IMG/VR virus record: IMGVR_UViG_3300050159_000048
Reading direction: 5' to 3' (one strand)
Length of the DNA stretch: 64,000 bases
Source: a virus
Taxonomy: Duplodnaviria > Caudoviricetes
A program made the position numbers and the translations under genes. Shown here in pieces: positions 3,339-31,916 of the stretch (position 1 is its first letter; each line of letters begins with the position of its first letter). The notes beneath the pieces were generated by a model. That model did no database searches. It worked only from the letters and a program-made list of their open reading frames with translations, and was not told the DNA's origin.

Positions 3339-4052
3339 TCAAATACGTTGCGACAACAGGCCGTGTTTTTTGTTAAACGGCTGAACTTGCTTTGTAATCA
3401 AGCTCCGTACGCCTACAACGTAGGCGTATTGGGCTGGTGAGCGTAGATGTTCCACGTTACCGATGCCCATATTGTATGCTGCTACTGCCTTATCCCAGTT
3501 GCCGTTGCATAGGTCAAAGTACAACTTGAAATGCATTGCAGCGATTCGAATGTTTGCCTCGTCATTGTTTAGTAGCAAGGCTACGATCTCATCGTTGGTG
3601 ACTTTATCGTATGGTTTGTGGGGGAAGTAAACTTTCGCAACTTGGGGGTTGCGCTGCAAAACTGACCGTGCTGCAACCACTTGAACTTGCATCAATCCGT
3701 ATGATCGCTTGCTTGCTGCTGCTCCGCGGTTACCGATCGGGTCGCTCTGGCCACCCTTAGTTTCACGCAGCAAGATAGCTTGCAGGGTTTCTGGATGTCC
3801 TACCTCACTTCCAATCTGAAACACTCTCTTCATGTTGTCTACAGCAGTTCGCGTAAACGCTTGGAGTTGTGTTGTGGTTTCTGGCTGTGTACGCGTTGGT
3901 GTACGCACAACAGTTGCTTGTGGCTCTGCTACTACAACTTCTGGCAGCGCTGATTCAGTGGATGCTGAACCTTCTGCATATGCGAATGATTCAGTCATCA
4001 TCAACACGAATAGCAACAGAGACGCGGTTATTCGATGATTGCTCATCTTCAT
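3339..4052 (-). CDS. Lytic transglycosylase (SLT domain) with N-terminal signal/TM segment
   Basis: AILLRETKGG catalytic Glu, SYGLMQV, AVAAYNMG motifs; hydrophobic N-terminus. Confidence 0.9.
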   Translation of the reverse strand: MKMSNHRITASLLLFVLMMTESFAYAEGSASTESALPEVVVAEPQATVVRTPTRTQPETTTQLQAFTRTAVDNMKRVFQIGSEVGHPETLQAILLRETKGGQSDPIGNRGAAASKRSYGLMQVQVVAARSVLQRNPQVAKVYFPHKPYDKVTNDEIVALLLNNDEANIRIAAMHFKLYFDLCNGNWDKAVAAYNMGIGNVEHLRSPAQYAYVVGVRSLITKQVQPFNKKHGLLSQRI

Positions 4053-4101
4053 TCCTTTCGTCAAAAGTTATACCCTCCTGGTATTACTACCAAGAAGGGC
4101 G

Positions 4102-4130
4102 ATTATAGTTGAGATAGGGAGTTAAATCAA
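4102..4130 (-). promoter_or_regulatory. Sigma70-like promoter
   Basis: TTGATT-17-TATAAT upstream of SLT gene. Confidence 0.7.
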
Positions 4131-4759
4131 CTGGGTTGGTTTAGGTATGGTCCAAACCAAGTCGTATAGTTACCAGGGAAGCTACCTGGATTATACATAT
4201 ACGGCGTTTTAGCTACGATGTGGAATCGTGCTTGAAAGAGGTCACCCGCAAACACCTCTGTGGTGTTATTTATGAAGTGAGGATCACTGGGGAACACGAT
4301 TAGTGTGCCACGCTGCGGATTAAATCCGAAATGATGTTGAACAAACTCAAGTTTGCCGCCATATACATCAAATTCCTGTTCAAACGGAGTATTTTCTTGA
4401 TAATCTGACAGGAATAGAACTGCTGTCAGATCGCGAGCATTTGTGCGAACCCACTTGCCTCGTAAGTGCTCACTGTTCTCAGCCCGGAAGGTGCCAGAAC
4501 TTCCCGCAGGAAACCACTCAAATTCAACACTCTCCGTGCCACGGTACAGCATCTGATAGTGCCCTTGGATTTCGGGCAGTAACATAAGCAGCCGCTCATA
4601 AATCAAACCTTCAGCAGTTTCCGACCGTTTGGTCGTCTTCACATACTTCCCGTCCTTGTTTTGATCAGGGACATTGAAATCCACAATATCAACAATATCT
4701 TCACACATCAGAGGAGAAATGAACTCCTCAACAACATAAAACGGAGACTTATTCATCAT
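4127..4759 (-). CDS. 2OG-Fe(II) oxygenase-fold protein with degenerate metal ligands
   Basis: RDLTAVLFLSDY, GGKLEF, P.RGTLIVFPS fold motifs; HxD...H...R positions appear substituted. Confidence 0.7.
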   Translation of the reverse strand: MMNKSPFYVVEEFISPLMCEDIVDIVDFNVPDQNKDGKYVKTTKRSETAEGLIYERLLMLLPEIQGHYQMLYRGTESVEFEWFPAGSSGTFRAENSEHLRGKWVRTNARDLTAVLFLSDYQENTPFEQEFDVYGGKLEFVQHHFGFNPQRGTLIVFPSDPHFINNTTEVFAGDLFQARFHIVAKTPYMYNPGSFPGNYTTWFGPYLNQPS

Positions 4760-5291
4760 TATGGACTTTGAGAGTATTCAGGTACGTAACCAATTCCGGA
4801 ATAGTTACATTATGTTTTGCTAGAATTTGAACAGCTTCCATGATTTGCATATCGCGATCAATATTGGCGGCAGATTCGGAAGTTGGGGCGTCCGCCTCAT
4901 CCTGATTTGGGTTAATCAGGAAGTTACCTGCTTGCAGGATATTCTGACCGACAAGGATTGCTGTATCCATGTGTGAGCGATCATTCAAGTTGAACGTAGC
5001 AGCCTTGAGTTGAACTCCTTCAATTTCAACATCCAACCGCACCATTGGTCGATGCTCTCCACCGTGGTCTGCAGAATGCACTTCCTGTGTCCCGTCGACG
5101 TCAAGCGTGATTTGGTTCTTGGATAGCTGTGGACATACAAAAGTAACCGTTCCACGCTTTTCGTCCATCTGGATATTCTCAGCGTGGAGTGATGAGGTTG
5201 TTGCCCCAGTGTCAACCTTCCCCTCAAGGGAGCGACCCAATTGTAAGAAATTCACTGTTACACTGTTGCCAATTACCTTGTTGTTCATCAT
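4749..5291 (-). CDS. Retropepsin-like aspartic peptidase (RimK-associated 'Zn protease' family)
   Basis: GKVDTGATTSSLHA, RPMVRL, FNLNDRSHM...ILVGQN. Confidence 0.85.
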   Translation of the reverse strand: MMNNKVIGNSVTVNFLQLGRSLEGKVDTGATTSSLHAENIQMDEKRGTVTFVCPQLSKNQITLDVDGTQEVHSADHGGEHRPMVRLDVEIEGVQLKAATFNLNDRSHMDTAILVGQNILQAGNFLINPNQDEADAPTSESAANIDRDMQIMEAVQILAKHNVTIPELVTYLNTLKVHNDE

Positions 5292-5956
5292 TACACTCCA
5301 TACGTTTTGTGATACGTATTTATGCGTCGAAGAAGTGGCTCAATGTATGGCTCAATCGGTTGCTTGAATATCAACGGTACAGCTCCTCGTTCGCTGCTCA
5401 TGATGATCACAATTTGATCAATTTGAATGCCATACCGCTCCAGATACATCAATGCATACGCTGTTGTCTGTAGGAAATAGTCACCAATCATCGATTGCTT
5501 CTTATCGGTTGTTGATGTTTTGAAGTCGATGATTGCGGGCACTCCGTCGTATTCGCCAATACAATCAACACGCCCAGCAACACGCATTACATCACTCCAC
5601 AGCGCGGATTCTTGAGTGTGAATGTTATTGATCCGCTTTAGATGGACCTTCAGCATGTTGAAGTCTGGAATGTGGGCCGGTAACATATCGCGAGTAGGAT
5701 CTACCTCATTGTTGAGGTACCGCTCCACCATCAAGTGAACTGCTGACCCTCGGTCGGCTGCTCGCTTCATTTCAGCGTCTGCTCGATCTGCGCCCATACT
5801 GTCACGCCACTCTCGAAGCCACGGTTTGTCACCAGCTCCCAAAATGGTGGTAATTGACGGATACTTGTTGCCTTCTGGCGTCAAATAAAAACGCCCGTTA
5901 GGACCCTCTTCTGTGTTGAGGTTAACGGGCGTGATGTTGTTGAGATGCGTGAACAT
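5291..5956 (-). CDS. PD-(D/E)XK (Cas4-like) exonuclease
   Basis: YPSITTIL, RGSAVH, AGRVDC, IIDFKTS, QTTAY. Confidence 0.88.
   Translation of the reverse strand: MFTHLNNITPVNLNTEEGPNGRFYLTPEGNKYPSITTILGAGDKPWLREWRDSMGADRADAEMKRAADRGSAVHLMVERYLNNEVDPTRDMLPAHIPDFNMLKVHLKRINNIHTQESALWSDVMRVAGRVDCIGEYDGVPAIIDFKTSTTDKKQSMIGDYFLQTTAYALMYLERYGIQIDQIVIIMSSERGAVPLIFKQPIEPYIEPLLRRINTYHKTYGV
5317..5324 (-). promoter_or_regulatory. T4-like late promoter CATAAATA
   Basis: 26 nt upstream of peptidase start. Confidence 0.55.
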
Positions 5957-5966
5957 AATGTCCTAA

Positions 5967-6284
5967 TTATGCGACGCCACCTCCTGGGGTTGCAGCACCG
6001 GCACTGCCGGGAGTTGTCGTCATCGTGCGAGCCTGGGCATTTGGTGCTCCAGGTTGTGGAGTTTGAGCGTTTGGAGTTGCTCCGGAACGCTTGTCTTCCA
6101 TTTGTTTTTGCTTAGCCTTCAATGCGAGCATCTTAGACAATTGTTGCTTACGTTGAAGCAGCGGTGCAGTACGTTGGTTGATCTGAGCATCAATTTGAGC
6201 CATATCCGTGGAGATTTTGTCAATCTCAGCTTGCAGATCCTCATCCAGTCTAGTCAAAAACTGCTTAAAAGACAACTGGGTCAT
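5967..6284 (-). CDS. Hypothetical coiled-coil protein, possible internal head protein
   Basis: N-terminus SFKQFLTRLDE resembles T4-type capsid targeting sequence. Confidence 0.55.
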   Translation of the reverse strand: MTQLSFKQFLTRLDEDLQAEIDKISTDMAQIDAQINQRTAPLLQRKQQLSKMLALKAKQKQMEDKRSGATPNAQTPQPGAPNAQARTMTTTPGSAGAATPGGGVA

Positions 6285-24078: not shown

Positions 24079-24594
24079 TTATGTAGTAAGGATACGTACG
24101 TCAGCACGGTTTATGTCTTGATGAATGGACAACCGGCTGCAAGCCAATGCCTCCTCACGAGTTGCGCGGAGAGCATACCATATTCCGTTCTCACGCTTAC
24201 GAAACCCGGTACCGTGTTGGTATACACCGTCTGCAGCGTTGTAGTATTGAGGCGGGCTAGGAATGCTGTGATGCTTGGTAAGTGTCCATCCTTGATCAGT
24301 ATCAGCAGTGTTCCACGTAAAGAAAACAGTCACTGTATTTGGGTCAACAACCTCAATGCGATGAGCGGTTTTGTTGGTATGGAAAATGACAGAACCTACG
24401 TTGTGACGGGTGTATTTGAGCGAGCCGTTGCGGCTCATTGTAGCTTCTGTATAGCCACCTCTCACAACAACGGACACGTAGTGGAACGGGTGGGTGTGGA
24501 GGAACGGGGTGCGATCAGCTGTCTTGATTTCGTGTATGCGAACGCGAAGCCGACCAATGGAGCCCACATGCCAGCGATGCAGATACCCTGGCAT
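24079..24594 (-). CDS. Cupin-fold protein
   Basis: LHTHPF...GGYTE...HRI metal-binding cupin pattern. Confidence 0.7.
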   Translation of the reverse strand: MPGYLHRWHVGSIGRLRVRIHEIKTADRTPFLHTHPFHYVSVVVRGGYTEATMSRNGSLKYTRHNVGSVIFHTNKTAHRIEVVDPNTVTVFFTWNTADTDQGWTLTKHHSIPSPPQYYNAADGVYQHGTGFRKRENGIWYALRATREEALACSRLSIHQDINRADVRILTT

Positions 24595-24616
24595 GTGGTT
24601 GTAAGGTTTGGTGATC

Positions 24617-25144
24617 TTACGACTTAGTCTTCGCAGCCCAGTCCAAATCCAGGTCTTCGCCATACTCATGATTGATCTTGAGTTTGCTGATAGCGTCCGC
24701 AATATCTGGTAGGGTTTTTTCGTCCAAGTCGCCAATGTCATACGAGAGTGTGACGTGCGTTTTGTATTCGGGGAAGTCGTAGGTGGCATCATGCTCGTCC
24801 ATCAATTCCTTATGGCGATCGTTTAGCTCCTCACATTTGAACTTCATTACCAAGCAGCGCTTTGGTTCTTCGTCACGAAGCTTTCCTTTTGACTCCCACA
24901 CCTCCAACCCAACAGGAGTACCGATCCAAGCTGGATCAATGTCACCCTGTGGCTCATAATCTGGACAGTGTTTGCGACTGTACAGAACTGTGCAGTGCAG
25001 TTTTTCTGCTGGCACACCGTTTGGGATCTCGTTGTTCTCAATATACTTGCGAATGTTGTTGACGGTACTCTCGTCAAACTTCACCGCTGCATATGTACCG
25101 GGTTCTGGGCTGTCTTCTTTTTCGAGGAGTTCAAATAGTTTCAT
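24617..25144 (-). CDS. acb1: Acb1/T4 gp57B-like 2H phosphodiesterase (anti-CBASS nuclease homolog)
   Basis: YAAVKF, LHCTVLYSR, LEVW, ATYDFPEYKTHVTLSY, EYGEDLDLDWA match T4 57B pattern. Confidence 0.88.
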   Translation of the reverse strand: MKLFELLEKEDSPEPGTYAAVKFDESTVNNIRKYIENNEIPNGVPAEKLHCTVLYSRKHCPDYEPQGDIDPAWIGTPVGLEVWESKGKLRDEEPKRCLVMKFKCEELNDRHKELMDEHDATYDFPEYKTHVTLSYDIGDLDEKTLPDIADAISKLKINHEYGEDLDLDWAAKTKS

Positions 25145-25158
25145 TATTCACTTTTCGT

Positions 25159-26265
25159 TCACACCGGTTCAAATCCAGTGCGGCCCTCTTTCAATGTGTT
25201 AGGGATCACGGGTTGTCCATACATCCAGTGTCTGGTTGTATTGACGTGGCCTTTGCGAACGTATTTACCGACCATTTGTTTGAACTGACTGAAGTGGAAA
25301 GGCTCGTCAACACGAATGACATAGCCTTCAACCTCGCCTCTGGCGGCTTCGCGTTGCTGCTTCAGGGTGCTATATGATTGCTCAATCTTGGCTCGATCAT
25401 ACTCGCCCCAGTAAATCACCGGGCATGGAGTGACGCCAAGCAGTTCATACCACTGCAGCGTGTCTTGCCAGGTCAGGATGTGATTTGTGTCATCCCACAT
25501 GGCAAAACCATACGCATATGTTTCGAGGTCAACATATGTAATCGAGTGCTTTGCGTACATATTTTCGACGCTGAGCCTCCAACCTTCTGGAATGTCGTGT
25601 TGGAACTGAGAGGCGAACGCACGGATCCAATCACGAGACGGGTGTCCACCAGAAGTGACGGAGCGAGCATGCATGTAATCGTTGTAGATTGACGTGTTTT
25701 CACCGTCCAATTTCTCCATCACGACAACCTTTCGGCCTTCGAAGATGGAAACGTCTGGCATCATACGATCGTCATCGTGCATGCCCGGAGACCACGGCAA
25801 ATGGAAGGTTCGGGGGTATTTGACGTACTTGACAAAATCCCCAATCACGCCACCTTCAGTCAGAACCTTTTGGACGCTCTCGTCGTTAAACAGTTCGCCC
25901 CGCAGCCTGCGATTATCGTCAAGGATTACATTACCCCACTTATCGTATACGGTGTCGGTGTACATATGGGGAGGGAGGATTGGTTTGGTGATGCCGGCAT
26001 ATTCCCGAATTTGCTCAACAGTGATCTGAGTTCGTTCACACGCAAGGTGATGCTCGGAACATACGGATGCACCGTTGTTCAAGTGATATCCCTGACAATC
26101 ACCAAACAACCTTCGCTCAATTATATGATGGGCATCAACCGCTGGTGCCCCACACACAACGCAGCGGTAAGCGTCACGTTGGAATGTATGCTCACGAAAC
26201 TGATCACGTGTCAGTCGTTGATTGGTGGTGCAGCACGAGCTTGCACCAGCTGATAAATTGCTCAT
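25159..26265 (-). CDS. HNH-domain/RNA ligase fusion protein
   Basis: N-term CVVC..DAHHI..NGASVC..HH; C-term KYPRTFHL, EKLDGEN, EGYVIR, KYVR. Confidence 0.88.
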   Translation of the reverse strand: MSNLSAGASSCCTTNQRLTRDQFREHTFQRDAYRCVVCGAPAVDAHHIIERRLFGDCQGYHLNNGASVCSEHHLACERTQITVEQIREYAGITKPILPPHMYTDTVYDKWGNVILDDNRRLRGELFNDESVQKVLTEGGVIGDFVKYVKYPRTFHLPWSPGMHDDDRMMPDVSIFEGRKVVVMEKLDGENTSIYNDYMHARSVTSGGHPSRDWIRAFASQFQHDIPEGWRLSVENMYAKHSITYVDLETYAYGFAMWDDTNHILTWQDTLQWYELLGVTPCPVIYWGEYDRAKIEQSYSTLKQQREAARGEVEGYVIRVDEPFHFSQFKQMVGKYVRKGHVNTTRHWMYGQPVIPNTLKEGRTGFEPV

Positions 26266-26947
26266 CTGTCATATCTCGTTTCATTACGTTGATCATTTTA
26301 TGCACCCACTGAACATTGTCAACAGTATACCCTTTTGTTGAATCTATTCTATCTAGTGAGGCAGTGCATTTCTTATTCCAAGCTGTTCCAAATTCAATAT
26401 CCACCCCGCTTAACGCACATCGTTTTTGTTGGGCTACAAAAATATCCCAACCTTCCTGGGGGGTTAGTTCAAACGGAATATTTCGCTTCGCCGCACCACA
26501 TTTCCACCCACCCCATCGTGATCCGTATATTTCTTCATACCCTGTAAACGAGGCTTGGCGGCCATTGTTTTGTCGAACTTGATGGAAGGCAGCACATCCT
26601 GGGACTCCACAAGTTTTTCTACCGCCGTTGATAATCTTTCTTGTGACATCTTGGACAGGATTCCCACATTCACAACGACCAATGATATTCCATTCATGAT
26701 ACTTGTCATTGTAAATGAAGGCCTCAACAGTAATGGAATTGAACTGTTGACCAACCAAGGATTGGTCTGGAAGTGTCCGCGGGGGATACTTTCGTCTGAG
26801 CGGTAATCCTTGTTCACGTAAGTATCGTTTGATTGGTGCTTCTCCGACCTTAAGTTGTTTGCATATTTGTGTGACCGGAACGAGAGTGTTGTACAGCTCG
26901 TTGATTAGCTGCTGTTCTTGTTCTGTGAACTGACGTAGTGGTTGCAT
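26204..26947 (-). mobile_element. Free-standing HNH homing endonuclease
   Basis: CALSG..ASLDRIDSTKGYTVDNVQWVHKMIN; N-terminal HTH-like region; late promoter at 26975-26982. Confidence 0.88.
26295..26322 (-). promoter_or_regulatory. Sigma70-like promoter embedded in HNH 3' end
   Basis: GTTGACA-16-TAAAAT, about 30 nt upstream of ligase ATG 26265. Confidence 0.6.
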
Positions 26948-26974
26948 GTGGTGTTCCGTTCAAGACGTTGAAGG

Positions 26975-26982
26975 TATTTATG
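26975..26982 (-). promoter_or_regulatory. Late promoter CATAAATA for HNH endonuclease
   Basis: 28 nt upstream of ATG 26947. Confidence 0.6.
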
Positions 26983-27027
26983 CAACTCCCTTCTGAACTA
27001 CCAATCATTTGCGTCACTTAAATTCTC

Positions 27028-27153
27028 TTATTTGAACAGCCGACGTTCAATAATGTGGTGAGCATCAACAGCCGCAGCGCCACAAACAACGCATTTGTGG
27101 TGATCGCGGTTGAATACGCTTTCGCGGAAGACGTCTCTGGATAGTAGTATCAT
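27028..27153 (-). pseudogene. Orphaned 5' stub (41 aa) of the HNH-RNA ligase gene
   Basis: MILLSRDVFRESVFNRDHHKCVVCGAAAVDAHHIIERRLFK*; 28/37 residues identical to N-terminal region of 25159-26265. Confidence 0.9.
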
Positions 27154-27178
27154 GGTAGTTTTCTGGATTTTGTTAAGG

Positions 27179-27207
27179 ATGATACGGTATCACCCAAGGT
27201 CAAGCAA
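27179..27207 (-). promoter_or_regulatory. Sigma70-like promoter of the ligase stub
   Basis: TTGCTT-17-TATCAT. Confidence 0.5.
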
Positions 27208-27227
27208 CTACCAAAGATTACTAGTAA

Positions 27228-27473
27228 TTACAACCGCTTGATATCTGCGCCAACAATAGTGCATTCAAACGTGTCTTCTGACAGCTTCTTGGTCACACGC
27301 ACGCCATACAGATCAATGTCGTCTGTTTCGATTTTGTCAATTGTGCTGCCAACAGTCGCATTACCTTTGATGTTGACGGTCGTCCAAGAGTGGCCAGTAA
27401 TCTCACGCGTGCCGTTGGGGTGGATCTTTTCTACTGCGTTGAGAACAGGTTTAGTGAGGATTTCGTAAGTCAT
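27228..27473 (-). CDS. Hypothetical protein
   Basis: ATGA-coupled to DHFR. Confidence 0.6.
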   Translation of the reverse strand: MTYEILTKPVLNAVEKIHPNGTREITGHSWTTVNIKGNATVGSTIDKIETDDIDLYGVRVTKKLSEDTFECTIVGADIKRL

Positions 27474-28180
27474 TTGCGTCTCCAGACCGTAAAGCGCAAG
27501 TCAGGAGCGCTTTCAGCCTTAAACATTTTGTCCATGTTGAAGTGTTTGAGCACATAGTTCACGGGGAAGAACAGATCAGCTTCAACATCCTTGTTTACCA
27601 CAGTGATGTACGCCGTATCCGCTTTCGCGATTCCCTCACGATATATGCGCTCGCCGCCGATGAAGAACACCATCTTACTGATGTCCTCATCGATGATGTA
27701 CTTATCAACCTCCCCAATCGAAGTGACTGCCGTTGCATTATCCCGAGGCAGAGGACTGGAGGTAACCACAAAACATCTACGGTTAGGTAGCACACTACTT
27801 TGTGCCTTGTCGCCAAGACGTTTGTTGATATCATCGTACGTGGCACGACCCATCACACAGATTTGGTTCGACGTGGTCTGTTGAAACCACTTGAAATCTT
27901 CCGGATAATTCCACGGAATTTCCCCATCTTTGGAGAACCCACCTTTCTCGTCAACCGCGACAATTGCAGCGTATTGGCGCCGCGGAGCAGTATTGATCTC
28001 GTGCTGCGTCAGTTGAGCAAAGTGTGCTGCTTTCATCGCTTCAATTTCATGAACGCGTTGTTCGGCTCGGTGCTTGAGACGCGCTTCAAGTTCCACACGC
28101 ACTTGTTCCTTCTGCTCGGGAGGCATCCCGGTAGTAAACTCTTCAAATGCGCGTTTTTGATGGTCACTCATCATCGTCAT
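27470..28180 (-). CDS. folA: Dihydrofolate reductase with ~65 aa N-terminal extension
   Basis: AIVAVD..GGF..GEIPW..PEDF..F, VMGRAT, LPNR, IGGERIY, ADLFFP. Confidence 0.92.
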   Translation of the reverse strand: MTMMSDHQKRAFEEFTTGMPPEQKEQVRVELEARLKHRAEQRVHEIEAMKAAHFAQLTQHEINTAPRRQYAAIVAVDEKGGFSKDGEIPWNYPEDFKWFQQTTSNQICVMGRATYDDINKRLGDKAQSSVLPNRRCFVVTSSPLPRDNATAVTSIGEVDKYIIDEDISKMVFFIGGERIYREGIAKADTAYITVVNKDVEADLFFPVNYVLKHFNMDKMFKAESAPDLRFTVWRRK

Positions 28181-28421: not shown

Positions 28422-28828
28422 ACGAAATCTTGCTCCATTATTGGGTTCCTGAGACAGGCCATCATGCTGATCCGCGCCTCTTCGTACCGCGGATCGTGAT
28501 GAAGGATATTCTCCCGCATCTGCGGCGTTAAGTCAAGGAAGTAACGATCAACGGACAGGCCGCACAGACCGCACCCCAGCAGGTGCGCTACAGATAAGAA
28601 ACGAAATTGTTGCCGTCCAACCTGTACGATATGGCGAACATTCCTAACCACCGGTTGTTTTTCAGCCATTAGCTTTGATGCAAACTGAGCGGCAGCTAAT
28701 TCTGCTGCTCTTGCGGTTGGTCCAATGTATACGTATTGGTTAGATGGATCGCCAAGATCCACCTCACCCATCAATAGATCAACATATTGAGTTGTTTGTT
28801 CATGATTCTTTTTCACGTAATGTGTCAT
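28418..28828 (-). CDS. Hypothetical protein
   Basis: ATGA-coupled to ligase C fragment. Confidence 0.6.
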   Translation of the reverse strand: MTHYVKKNHEQTTQYVDLLMGEVDLGDPSNQYVYIGPTARAAELAAAQFASKLMAEKQPVVRNVRHIVQVGRQQFRFLSVAHLLGCGLCGLSVDRYFLDLTPQMRENILHHDPRYEEARISMMACLRNPIMEQDFV

Positions 28829-29625
28829 AGCATAGCCTTCAGTTCGTCTTGAGAAATTACAGTAACGCCCAAATCGCGCGCCTTCACTGCTTTCCCAGAT
28901 GTGCTGTTGGGCTCTGCTGTGACCAGATACGTGGTCTTGCTGCTAACTCCGGTGCTCATCACACCACCCACATCAACGATTTGCGCTTCTAGTTCTTTGG
29001 AGCGGAACCCAGTGAACACGAACGACTTACCAGACAGATGGCCTTGTTTCTTCGCAACGAATGCGGCGATCGACACATACTTATCAATCGCGCTAAGGAA
29101 CTTCAAGAAAGTGGGGTAGCCAGCAACAATCTTCTTGGCCGTCTTGACGTCGAAGCCTTCCACAGCAACGATTGCATTCAGATCGGCACACTTTGCCATA
29201 TCACCAGCAAATGCTTCTTCCAGTTTCTTCATCTTTCGCACCCCAACGCCGCGTCCGAACGCGGCGCACGATCCCATCAGCACGTGCATCGGGATGTTGG
29301 TGAAACGCTCGCGCATGTTGGTGAAAATCTTCTTACCAATTGCCATACTACCGACCAAGCTGCCGATGTCTTCCAGCGTCAGAGGAATGATCTTTTCAGG
29401 AGTATCGAACCCCATGTCGAACATTTGGCGCAGATTGCCTTCACCGAGGTGAGGGATGTCAACGGATGAGAAGAAGTCAACCAGACGTTCAAACCGAGCA
29501 GTTTCGTTGTTTGCAGCATCAACGGCTACTGCATCGACCCCTGTCTCATTCCAATGCCAATCACCTAGGTTATCCAGTTGAGCGTTAAACCATGTTTCGT
29601 ATGCTTGTTTGTATTCGGGGGTCAT
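28825..29625 (-). CDS. ligA: NAD-dependent DNA ligase, C-terminal fragment (HhH + BRCT)
   Basis: WNETGVD, GVGVRKMKK HhH, BRCT LSGKSFVFTGF..GVSSKTTYLV..K..KARDLGV; GGAG SD. Confidence 0.9.
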   Translation of the reverse strand: MTPEYKQAYETWFNAQLDNLGDWHWNETGVDAVAVDAANNETARFERLVDFFSSVDIPHLGEGNLRQMFDMGFDTPEKIIPLTLEDIGSLVGSMAIGKKIFTNMRERFTNIPMHVLMGSCAAFGRGVGVRKMKKLEEAFAGDMAKCADLNAIVAVEGFDVKTAKKIVAGYPTFLKFLSAIDKYVSIAAFVAKKQGHLSGKSFVFTGFRSKELEAQIVDVGGVMSTGVSSKTTYLVTAEPNSTSGKAVKARDLGVTVISQDELKAML

Positions 29626-29634
29626 GGGGTTCTC

Positions 29635-29642
29635 CATAAATA
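29635..29642 (+). promoter_or_regulatory. Late promoter CATAAATA for endonuclease
   Basis: Overlaps the antisense GGAG SD of ligase C fragment. Confidence 0.55.
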
Positions 29643-29667
29643 AACGGAATGACATCACTTACCGTGT

Positions 29668-29696
29668 AGTATACGGTTGAATTTCGAAAAGATCAA
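29668..29696 (-). promoter_or_regulatory. Sigma70-like promoter for ligase C fragment
   Basis: GTTGATC-17-TATACT. Confidence 0.7.
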
Positions 29697-29698
29697 CA

Positions 29699-30442
29699 AT
29701 GAAACGACTAACATTTGACCAATTTGTCCAAAAGAGTAGGCTCATACATGGGGACAAATATCAGTACACGACCTATCATAAGAATTCTGTTAAGACAGAA
29801 ATAATTTGCCCCAACCACGGATCATTTTGGCAACGACCACTGGATCACATGCGTAGCGATGGTTGTCCAGTGTGTAAGTTTGAACACCTTGCTTCACTAA
29901 AGCGTGGAAATGTTGCATCGTTTATTAAGCGTGCTATTAATGTGCACGGAGACGTATACGATTATTCGCAAGTAATATATGTGAACGCTATTACGCCTGT
30001 TGAAATAATTTGTCCCAACCACGGATCATTTTGGCAAACTCCTGATAAGCACACTTCAGGCCAAACTCGCTGTCCCAAATGTTCACAACAATCGTCGCAT
30101 GGAGAGGCTGAGATTGAAAGGTGGTTAGACCAGCACGGTATTCAATACGAACGAGAGAAGCGGTTCGATGATTTGTGTGGTAGTACCCCAAATTCACGGC
30201 TGCGGTATGACTTCTTCTTACCAGCTTACAACATGCTGGTAGAGTTTGATGGCGAACAGCACTTTACCCCGGTTCGTACAAAGGGTAAGCTATCAACCGA
30301 GCAGGCTGTCGTCAAACATCAACGTACAGTTGAAAACGACGGTAAGAAAACAGCGTATGCGGAGAAGCATGGGTATCAGCTTCTCCGCATACGATATGAC
30401 CAGGACATCAATTCTCACCTTGCAGCGCGGGTGCGGTTATAG
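29699..30442 (+). mobile_element. Free-standing homing endonuclease (DUF723-like repeats + PD-(D/E)XK Vsr/DUF559-like nuclease), antisense within ligA
   Basis: IHGDKYQY, repeated ICPNHGSFWQ, RYDFFLP..LVEFDGEQH. Confidence 0.85.
29798..30037 (+). repeat. 36-bp direct repeat (29798-29833 and 30002-30037) encoding the endonuclease Zn-binding repeats
   Basis: gaaataatttg(c/t)cccaaccacggatcattttggcaa, one mismatch. Confidence 0.9.
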
Positions 30443-30722
30443 TGGGCGTGATTTCGTTTGAAGTGTTCGACCTTTCGGCATGTATGTGCTTGATGTTAAT
30501 GAGGGCAATTGGTATGTTGCCATACACACTACCTGTACCGATCCATTCATCCTTCTCATACAACTCCATTTGCATTTCTGGTGTCGGTCGACAACCATCC
30601 ATCCTAACAGTAACCTTTGCGTCACCCAAGTGTGGTTTTGCTTCCCGAAACCACACTTTAATTTGACAAGCAGGGCTGGTGAGAGGGGGACATTGCCAAT
30701 ACCAGAGCGTATAGTGTCTTTT

Positions 30723-31916
30723 TCATTTCATATTCTCCAAGGGCATGGGTTCAATGCACCGCAAAATTTGCGGAATGACATCGCCCGCGCGGGTAATTTC
30801 AATCTTGGCTCCAGGACCGATGCCGTTGTCCTTGATGAACTTAGCATTAAAGCCAGTCAGGTTGGAAATGGTGACGCCAACCAGATCAACCGGATGAATC
30901 TGAACGCGCGGCTTGTAGTAGCCATCCTTCGACACGTTCCACTCAACTTGTCGCACGGTAGCAACAGCAAGGTTTGATGAGTCAGCAACCTTGAACTTGA
31001 CCGCGTATTCTGGATTCAGCTCATCGGTTGCCAGGCGAGCGCGGGTTGCTGCTGCGTCGATGTCAATCACAATACCGTCAATTTCGTATTCCGTAACAGC
31101 CCGACGGTCGTTCAGCAGCTTGGTCAGGCGATCGTCGTTCCAATAGTCGGCTTGACCAATTGAGTATTCAGCAACCTTGAAGCCCCACTTTGCCAATTGT
31201 TCAAGTTGGTCAACCTTGGCCATCTTGCTGCCAACAATTTCGTACGCGACCGTATCAATCGCAGTGTACACTTCGGGATGGTTCTCCGACGAATTCATCA
31301 AGCCGGAGACCATGTTGCGGGGATTTTTGTAGATTCGGCCACCACGCGCAAACTTGCCGGTATTGATTCGACTAAATGATGCAGGGGAGATGATGTTTTC
31401 CGCACGAATCGTCACCGTGTCGCCAGTCAAGTTTGTGATTTGCTTGGGGACATTGTGAATTTTAGAAACGTGCCGTGTGATATCTGCACCCTCTTCGCCG
31501 TCGCCGCGTGAATATGCGATTTGCAGCTTGCCGTCAGTGTCGTACACAAGCATTGCGCTTGCACCGTCCAACTTATCGCTGATCACAATCAGATCGGTTG
31601 TCAGACCATGTTTGGCAATCCACCTGACGTAATCGCCTTGGTACACTTGATTCAGTGAGCCCATCTTGTATGGCAGCTTGATTTTTCCACCACGAACTGC
31701 ACTACCAATGCCAGTGAAGTAGGCATCAGCAGGACTGGTCTTCTGAGCGTACTGCTTCAGAGCGTCGTACTGGTTATCTTCCATCAAAGGCTCTTGATCA
31801 TTGAAGAACGCGTCATCCGCTGCTTTGAGCAACTCAATAACCGTGGCAATTTCAACGTCTTCGTATGAGCCGAAAACGAACATTTCTTCAACAAGGCGCT
31901 TATGATCAGTAGACAT
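30723..31916 (-). CDS. ligA: NAD-dependent DNA ligase, N-terminal fragment (adenylation + OB)
   Basis: DKLDG (adenylated Lys), YSRGDG..G.DIT, EIDGIV, AVKFK, TRAGDVIP; ends right after OB fold. Confidence 0.93.
   Translation of the reverse strand: MSTDHKRLVEEMFVFGSYEDVEIATVIELLKAADDAFFNDQEPLMEDNQYDALKQYAQKTSPADAYFTGIGSAVRGGKIKLPYKMGSLNQVYQGDYVRWIAKHGLTTDLIVISDKLDGASAMLVYDTDGKLQIAYSRGDGEEGADITRHVSKIHNVPKQITNLTGDTVTIRAENIISPASFSRINTGKFARGGRIYKNPRNMVSGLMNSSENHPEVYTAIDTVAYEIVGSKMAKVDQLEQLAKWGFKVAEYSIGQADYWNDDRLTKLLNDRRAVTEYEIDGIVIDIDAAATRARLATDELNPEYAVKFKVADSSNLAVATVRQVEWNVSKDGYYKPRVQIHPVDLVGVTISNLTGFNAKFIKDNGIGPGAKIEITRAGDVIPQILRCIEPMPLENMK

Follow-up and report, generated by a model that had tools for sequence, protein, structure and literature searches.

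The window analysed here, by which we mean the whole 64,000-nt stretch from the IMG/VR viral record IMGVR_UViG_3300050159_000048, contains a free-standing homing endonuclease gene (HEG) between two copies of the 5' end of an HNH-RNA-ligase gene. One copy is a stub of 41 amino acids preceding the HEG; the other is part of the full-length ligase open reading frame (ORF) that follows it. Our analysis suggests that the HEG probably entered by homing, that the head of a donor ligase gene was co-converted with it, and that one-sided illegitimate repair left the start of the resident ligase behind as the stub. Three other independent loci likewise have a resident-type ligase head immediately before the HEG. 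Related loci or contigs are designated by L numbers and homologues by P numbers.

Two copies of the ligase N-terminus

The genes of the locus lie on the minus strand. The stub ORF (27153-27028) ends in ...ERRLFK*, and its homology to the ligase family stops after the TTC codon at 27034. The following AAA TAA (27033-27028) is predicted to be from the inserted DNA; the lysine and the stop have no counterpart in the family. A hidden Markov model (HMM) of the family N-terminus matched the stub at positions 2-41 with 69.9 bits (E=4e-19), a score that places the duplication far beyond chance, and the conserved family positions were all intact in it. Like the intact ligase of HEG-less relatives, the stub is collinear with the resident genes that lie upstream, and its codon usage is genome-typical (22nd percentile). 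The data support its identification as the start codon and first 40 codons of the resident ligase, that is, as the remnant of an older ligase start.

Alignment to the stub placed the second copy, which is physically linked to the HEG, at 26214-26104 (37 codons, LTRD...ERRLF), so that residues 18-54 of the full-length downstream ORF have their duplicate in the stub. The two copies are in direct orientation and approximately 930 nt apart. Identical residues occupy 28 of the 37 aligned positions, including every position that is invariant in the family, and the nucleotide identity is 60%. Among the codons of these 28 residues, 7 are the same and 21 are different; within the last 13 residues, all of which are identical, 10 codons differ. 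The initial annotation had described the 41-aa stub, the HNH gene and the full ligase ORF with its repeated N-terminus, and all three lie at the coordinates that it gave; its counts of 28/37 shared residues and 10/13 differing codons were correct on recounting.

The nuclease gene and its leader

The HEG (247 aa, 26947-26204) is an ORF of its own, distinct from the stub and in a different frame from the ligase. Its predicted product has an N-terminal helix-turn-helix (HTH), a Cys-rich middle and a C-terminal HNH/EndoVII-like nuclease. The C-terminal 100-150 residues matched PHROG profiles for endonuclease (3.5e-22), endonuclease VII (1.5e-19) and HNH (6.9e-14), and Pfam returned a weak HTH_7 match and no HNH model above threshold. 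Searched against PDB sequences, the HEG profile matched the HTH and nothing else, and the NCBIfam search gave no match. An AlphaFold model (pLDDT 81.8) had PacI, the Gme HNH nickase and the Cas9 HNH domain as its top Foldseek matches, with high probabilities and weak E-values. The PHROG, HTH_7 and fold matches point to a homing-type nuclease domain combined with a DNA-binding module. The HEG also stands out in base composition: its GC content at third codon positions (GC3) is 0.405 versus a genome mean of 0.543 +/- 0.072 and its codon-usage score is -0.086, both the lowest in the neighbourhood.

The leader of the endonuclease cassette (27027-26948) carries CATAAATA at 26982-26975 (-), 27 nt before the HEG ATG. 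The motif occurs 11 times in the window versus 1.33 expected, a count reached in 0 of 100 shuffles, and stands mostly 25-35 nt upstream of ORF starts (minus strand: 4274, 5324, 7438, 26982 and 43487; plus strand: 29635, 50026, 50505, 51905, 57706 and 60453), while TATAAATA has no occurrence in the window. In agreement with the late promoter that had been proposed before the HNH gene, CATAAATA is probably the late-promoter consensus of the phage, judging by its abundance and placement. ATAAATA-type motifs also precede the HEG in L031, L032 and L034; when the upstream leaders were aligned across loci for the left edge of the cassette, this motif was the sole part in common.

A 9-mer, TTGGTAGTT, was observed at 27206-27214 and 26996-27004 (-), about 50 nt upstream of the stub ATG and of the HEG ATG, respectively. 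It has three copies in the window versus 0.37 expected, and in L034 the HEG is preceded by GGTAGTT at a comparable distance. The 9-mer may be a conserved leader element of ligase loci that is carried along with the cassette. We could not make the repeat into evidence for either a junction or a promoter.

Start of the downstream ligase and extent of the probable imported head

The full-length ORF downstream of the HEG (368 aa, 26265-25159) encodes an HNH-RNA-ligase: RNA_ligase (PF09414) matched residues 179-336 (2.5e-23), the PHROG RNA ligase profile matched residues 17-359 (1.7e-127), and the ligase motifs (KxDG; CxxC...DAHH...C..HH) are intact. The ORF matches its homologues, which number roughly 3,400 for the ligase, from residue ~17 to the end. 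Codons 1-17 overlap the 3' end of the HEG in another frame, and the family N-terminus begins at 26214. We found no ATG, GTG or TTG between 26265 and the LTRD codons; the ATG at 26265 is the sole canonical start before the conserved head and is the predicted ligase start. Of the seven close HEG-bearing loci, six (the window, L028, L031, L032, L113 and L199) have an in-frame ATG followed by an open frame at this position; in L195, the seventh, the equivalent upstream ATG is where the ligase begins according to the gene caller. This ATG arises from the conserved D-E/A-E-F codons of the HEG, and across HEG-bearing loci the 3' end of the HEG is conserved as one unit with the ligase head.

A candidate sigma70-like promoter facing the ligase, TTGACA-16-TAAAAT, lies within the HEG 3' end at 26322-26295 (-). 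Both this sequence and the in-frame ATG at 26265 had been noted in the initial annotation and are present as it described them. The candidate matches 11 of 12 consensus positions and is the sole exact match to the pattern in the window, where four sites, including this one, score at least 11/12. At the homologous position in L028, L031, L032, L113 and L034 the site is absent (scores of 8/12 or lower).

A weak terminator-like hairpin followed by a T-run was seen at 26446-26460 (-), in the HEG coding region and upstream of the promoter-like site; it recalls the internal terminators of T4 mobE and segF.

Several features set the 5' part of the downstream ligase apart from the remainder. Codons 41-80 are the most atypical in the gene (codon-usage score -0.161, against a 5th percentile of -0.057 for genome windows; GC3 0.40), and usage becomes typical again after approximately codon 80, with GC3 values of 0.53-0.65 in the downstream blocks. 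The loop that follows ERRLF has 8 residues, mostly PDGGYY, in 26 of the 26 closest ligases, whereas the window loop has 9 (GDCQGYH, one codon longer); the G-x-C-Q-G-Y-H form recurs in the HEG-bearing L032 and L195, whose ligases are otherwise 40-60% identical to the window ligase. Identity to the nearest ligase clade over residues 18-37 is 0.66, versus 0.86 within the clade, and this reduction is confined to the 5' end, identity being normal from approximately codon 98 (ratio ~1.0). The likely end of the imported tract was placed at 26103-26026, a segment that includes the GDCQGYH loop (26103-26083), on the basis of codon usage and the extra codon. Codon usage, the extra-codon loop and the 5' drop in identity would be the signals of co-conversion; none is decisive alone, and together they favour an imported head of approximately 60-80 codons.

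A nuclease clade dedicated to the ligase, and relatives without it

The HEG lies directly 5' of the ligase, and usually overlaps the ligase start, in approximately 14 distinct loci on unrelated phage backbones. The five closest homologues with examined context (P0122-P0125, 49-52% identity, and P0130, 45%) are all immediately 5' of a PF09414 ligase sequence, in gene contexts unrelated to each other; P0122-P0125 overlap the start of a full-length ligase, and at P0130 (L200) the C-terminal domain is all that remains of the ligase. More distant HEGs occupy the same position in L034, L035, L065, L077, L113, L114 and L195. In a tree of 133 HEG relatives, the window HEG fell in a clade of nine (support 96), all nine of them ligase-linked. 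The ligase-linked label required 4 changes on the tree versus 12.5 when shuffled, and 0 of 500 shuffles gave as low a number. In L036, an HEG homologue was observed to precede a stand-alone copy of the ligase HNH-like domain.

Insertion of a homing endonuclease at the ligase 5' end, as the initial annotation proposed, is borne out by this ligase-linked clade and by comparison with endonuclease-free relatives. The syntenic HEG-less loci L004, L005 and L196 each carry a single, intact ligase directly after the DHFR gene or a small ORF, and none of the HEG-less loci examined with the N-terminal HMM has two copies of the ligase head. At this locus the HEG is sporadic, being present in the window and L031 and absent from L004, L005 and L196. 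A ligase-linked HEG clade combined with HEG-less syntenic relatives is the signature of a free-standing homing endonuclease, and the gene has the properties of that class: it is associated with neither an intron nor an intein, its presence is sporadic, and its association with the target is conserved.

Recurrent stubs with different junctions

Scanning of six-frame translations with the N-terminal HMM recovered the three additional loci that retain a ligase head in front of the HEG. The stubs of the four loci end at ligase codon 14 (L031/L033), 20 (L200), 40 (the window) and 51 (L034), and all of the junctions are different. The L031/L033 stub consists of 14 codons, MAQLLTRDQFREGV, followed by an ATAAATA motif and then the HEG. 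The 51-codon stub of L034 runs through ...PDGGYYL, reading through ...ERRLFPDGGYYL before unrelated sequence begins. In L200 (2380-3881), a 20-codon stub and the HEG are followed by the ligase C-terminal domain alone, with homology resuming at residue ~134; we read this arrangement as an invasion in which the HNH-like domain was deleted and not rebuilt. The stubs of L031 and L034 are 59-73% identical to their own downstream copies at the nucleotide level, and L200 keeps no downstream copy. We found no matching description of such stubs in Barth et al. 2023 (PMC10448857).

The variable ends bear on where the enzyme may cut. The initial annotation had taken the end of the stub as the cleaved site; with ends at codons 14, 20, 40 and 51, the stub end is better regarded as an illegitimate-repair junction, which is not necessarily the cut. 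A stub should lack a complete recognition site, because otherwise the phage would cut its own DNA, and the site would therefore span or lie downstream of the longest stub end (approximately codon 51). It would lie upstream of approximately codon 134, because ligase homology resumes there in L200. In the initial annotation, the sequence coding for AVDAHHIIERRLF was the putative cut site of the nuclease.

Codon differences between the two copies

The differing codons had also been interpreted as a special device, a synonymous recoding of the rebuilt 5' end. This part of the proposal did not hold, since 21 of 28 is not beyond saturation: if codons are drawn at random from genome usage, 17.2 of 28 are expected to differ (P(>=21)=0.09). 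Among orthologues at 70-75% amino-acid identity, approximately 51% of identical residues differ in codon, and 21/28 is higher than this (P=0.01). The stubs of L031 and L034 show the same pattern of synonymous divergence. Because the synonymous differences are merely saturated, we see no designed recode in them; from the sequences, they appear to be the saturated divergence of donor and recipient alleles from separate lineages, with purifying selection on each. As a by-product, such divergence should block recombination between the copies and recognition by the nuclease, and it need not have been selected as a recode.

Proposed mechanism

The course of events that we consider likely begins with a co-infection, during which the enzyme would cut a ligase allele without the HEG, within the part that encodes the N-terminal HNH-like domain, between approximately codons 51 and 134. 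The break would be repaired from the HEG-bearing genome, using homology within the ligase gene on the downstream side, and the repair would copy the HEG together with the first ~60-80 ligase codons of the donor (co-conversion). Because the upstream neighbours differ between phages, the upstream side would lack homology, and the resected end, variable in extent, would consequently undergo illegitimate joining to the donor DNA in front of the HEG promoter. This join would leave the recipient's start and first 40 codons as a redundant stub; elsewhere it would leave stubs of 14-51 codons or none. Divergence of the two alleles in separate lineages, under purifying selection, would explain why almost all synonymous sites differ between the imported head and the stub. 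This divergence, together with the altered loop GDCQGYH, plausibly renders the linked allele uncuttable and prevents the two copies from recombining the HEG out. The ligase would now be translated from the ATG within the HEG 3' end, possibly via the promoter embedded there.

Several observations weigh against homing with one-sided repair. A stub is absent from the majority of HEG-bearing loci. Four runs that had partial k-mer shares all carried the same structure, at low coverage and with no joints, and no HEG-less variant of the same phage was found in them, so that the empty site is read from relatives, whose ligases are just 63-76% identical to the window ligase. The mosaic breakpoint near codon 80 is suggestive and statistically not decisive, with block-wise nucleotide identity giving a 5' breakpoint weak support. 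Over the 37 codons, identity to the nearest ligase clade is 0.80 for the stub and 0.78 for the downstream copy (0.89 within the clade); since the stub is not measurably closer, we judged it to be the resident copy by its linkage, collinearity and codon usage. The 9-residue loop was rejected as a strict marker of immunity, as it also occurs in the HEG-less P0057/L193 and P0031/L196.

We weighed this mechanism against four others. If the HEG had come with a complete donor ligase and the resident 3' part had been deleted, no crossover would have taken place within the gene and the present ligase would be entirely foreign. Such a whole-gene replacement is suggested in L034, whose downstream ligase is approximately 47% identical to the query ligase LIG2 (P0002), the corresponding value for the L034 stub being 79%, and the mosaic signal of the window is itself weak at the level of sequence identity. 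For the window we nevertheless regard replacement of the whole gene as unlikely: from approximately codon 98 its ligase is no more distant from the syntenic HEG-less clade than the members of that clade are from each other, codon usage and GC3 are genome-typical beyond approximately codon 80, and the extra-codon loop is common to distant HEG-linked alleles that elsewhere are only 40-60% identical. A tandem duplication of the ligase 5' end in situ, with later insertion of the HEG between the copies and divergence in place, would account for the direct orientation and the ~930-nt spacing, and for the occurrence of TTGGTAGTT before both the stub and the HEG. However, synonymous sites are saturated while 28/37 residues and all family-invariant positions are kept, which implies long purifying selection on both copies, and a redundant 41-aa stub would not experience such selection. 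The same architecture with different junctions occurs in three other phages, always adjoining the HEG clade, and no HEG-less locus carries two copies; duplication in place is therefore improbable.

Many phage HNH endonucleases are intron-encoded, and the stub end coincides exactly with the end of the repeat in the second copy, as would be expected if the HEG resided in a self-splicing element and the mRNA joined the stub to the sequence after 26103. A permissive Rfam search (E<=1) of positions 24500-28000 on both strands, however, gave no intron or ribozyme match, and a ribozyme would have to fit into the ~80 nt outside the coding sequence. Without any splicing the downstream ORF has its full length and an in-frame ATG of its own, and the stub ends at codons 14, 20 and 51 elsewhere are incompatible with a fixed splice site. 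We give splicing very little credence, and replacement without splicing, as the initial annotation had it, agrees with the lack of an Rfam intron and the complete downstream ORF. The same three lines of evidence (no Rfam match, a complete downstream ORF and variable stub ends) place the gene outside the group I intron-encoded class; the redundancy of the stub with downstream residues 18-54 sets the locus apart from genes in pieces. Finally, the source is a metagenome assembly, and the JGI contig L025 stops within the HEG 3' end, as might happen in a chimera of an HEG-bearing and an HEG-less strain. Nineteen contigs, which come from separate samples and were assembled independently (JGI and Logan), all have one and the same structure, and both the stub/HEG and the HEG/ligase junction are bridged, without a variant, by contigs of four further runs. 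The bridging short contigs (covering 26775-27522, 26204-26872 and 25205-26675) have zero differences and no alternative joints, so that we consider an assembly chimera barely conceivable.

It is also conceivable, though we lean against it, that the HEG clade has evolved into a cassette for "gene-head replacement", which would make it a natural cleave-and-rescue element that works without splicing. The cassette would consist of a late promoter, the nuclease, and a 5' head of the target that cannot be cut and has its start codon within the nuclease 3' end. If this were true, it would need one homology arm alone, the conserved ligase body, and could jump between phages without shared synteny, leaving decaying resident stubs as scars.

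Source phage, gene neighbourhood and other nuclease-associated loci

The parent IMG/VR viral record is 183 kb long with an estimated completeness of ~52%, indicating that the source is a jumbo phage. The same phage is present in leaf-litter and some freshwater metagenomes, and the runs on record for this stretch are all DNA. A megablast search with the region gave no match among GenBank phages, and its closest relatives were solely from metagenomes.

From the ORF list and gene order, the HEG-ligase locus is preceded by a DHFR-like gene (28180-27470, -) and an 81-aa ORF of unknown function (27473-27228, -), a resident upstream gene that follows the DHFR-like gene as in HEG-less relatives. Acb1 (25144-24617, -) lies downstream of the ligase. 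The order DHFR, small ORF, ligase and Acb1 is common to the window, L004, L031 and L196.

Further upstream, at 28825-31916, an NAD-dependent DNA ligase gene is seemingly split. A C-terminal LigA piece of 277 aa (HhH/BRCT; 28825-29658, -) is separated from the rest by an opposite-strand DUF723-type nuclease gene (29699-30442, +), which has its own CATAAATA at 29635. LigA is intact in L005 and L031 (640-660 aa), and the split LigA may be a case of genes in pieces.

Three related loci showed other arrangements. In L197 (660-4403), a relative of the HEG (44% identity) is located between a 155-aa ORF on its upstream side, which corresponds to ligase residues ~13-157, and an AAA_33/HD (PNK-like) gene on its downstream side, with a separate 324-aa PF09414 ligase further upstream, an arrangement unlike that of the other loci. 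The L008 ligase (4001-4228) has an in-frame stop within the conserved ...NGASVC*QHH... motif, which could reflect a pseudogene, a sequencing error or stop-codon recoding. In L032, a SegE-like GIY-YIG gene (5247-5978) follows the ligase immediately on the opposite strand, so that this ligase is flanked by two different homing-type nucleases.

Significance and comparison with known systems

The four lineages provide a natural record of the entry of a free-standing HEG into genomes that lack homology on one side, a route documented until now mainly in T4 laboratory constructs. The endonuclease clade is previously undescribed and appears dedicated to an RNA-ligase gene of large environmental phages that is clustered with Acb1, and the stub ends bracket its probable cut region. 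These loci also call for caution in annotation, because a short ORF annotated as "hypothetical" next to an HEG can be what is left of the target gene.

Intronless homing is known for the free-standing HEGs of T4 (SegF/gene 56, SegG/gene 32 and MobE/nrdB; PMC2988022, PMC2790892). As in these systems, the nuclease gene described here is free-standing, adjoins its target and is sporadic among related phages; flanking target sequence appears to be co-inherited, and the nuclease has its own late-type promoter motif. In T4 segG/gene 32, a promoter for the downstream gene is embedded in the free-standing HEG (PMC2988022), and the candidate promoter within the nuclease ORF of the window would be comparable. 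Unlike in the T4 systems, the nuclease belongs to a different clade, the target is a jumbo-phage HNH-RNA-ligase, the 3' end of the HEG extends over the translation start of the target and a duplicated target stub is kept.

According to PMC2988022, Parker, Belisle and Belfort (1999) described one-sided homing in a laboratory system (the td intron and I-TevI), in which double-strand breaks were repaired illegitimately at microhomologies after extensive resection. The loci analysed here resemble that process in having homology on one side, with junctions at non-homologous sites consistent with extensive resection and entry without full flanking homology; whereas the 1999 work concerned a laboratory system, ours are natural footprints in four metagenomic phage lineages. 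The same source cites the nrdA gene of Aeromonas phage Aeh1, which is split by mobE and whose pieces reassemble as protein (Friedrich et al. 2007, PMC2988022). Both cases have a free-standing HNH gene inside a once-single coding region; however, both pieces are needed in Aeh1, while in the window the upstream piece is redundant beside a complete downstream ORF.

The tight linkage of a nuclease to a diverged, presumably uncuttable copy of its target is reminiscent of synthetic cleave-and-rescue (ClvR) gene drives. The resemblance is in logic only, as the "rescue" here would be the ordinary co-converted allele of natural homing. The proposed mechanism is that of known intronless homing with probable co-conversion and not a new category; what is new is an HEG clade with a new target and a natural, recurrent footprint of probable one-sided repair.

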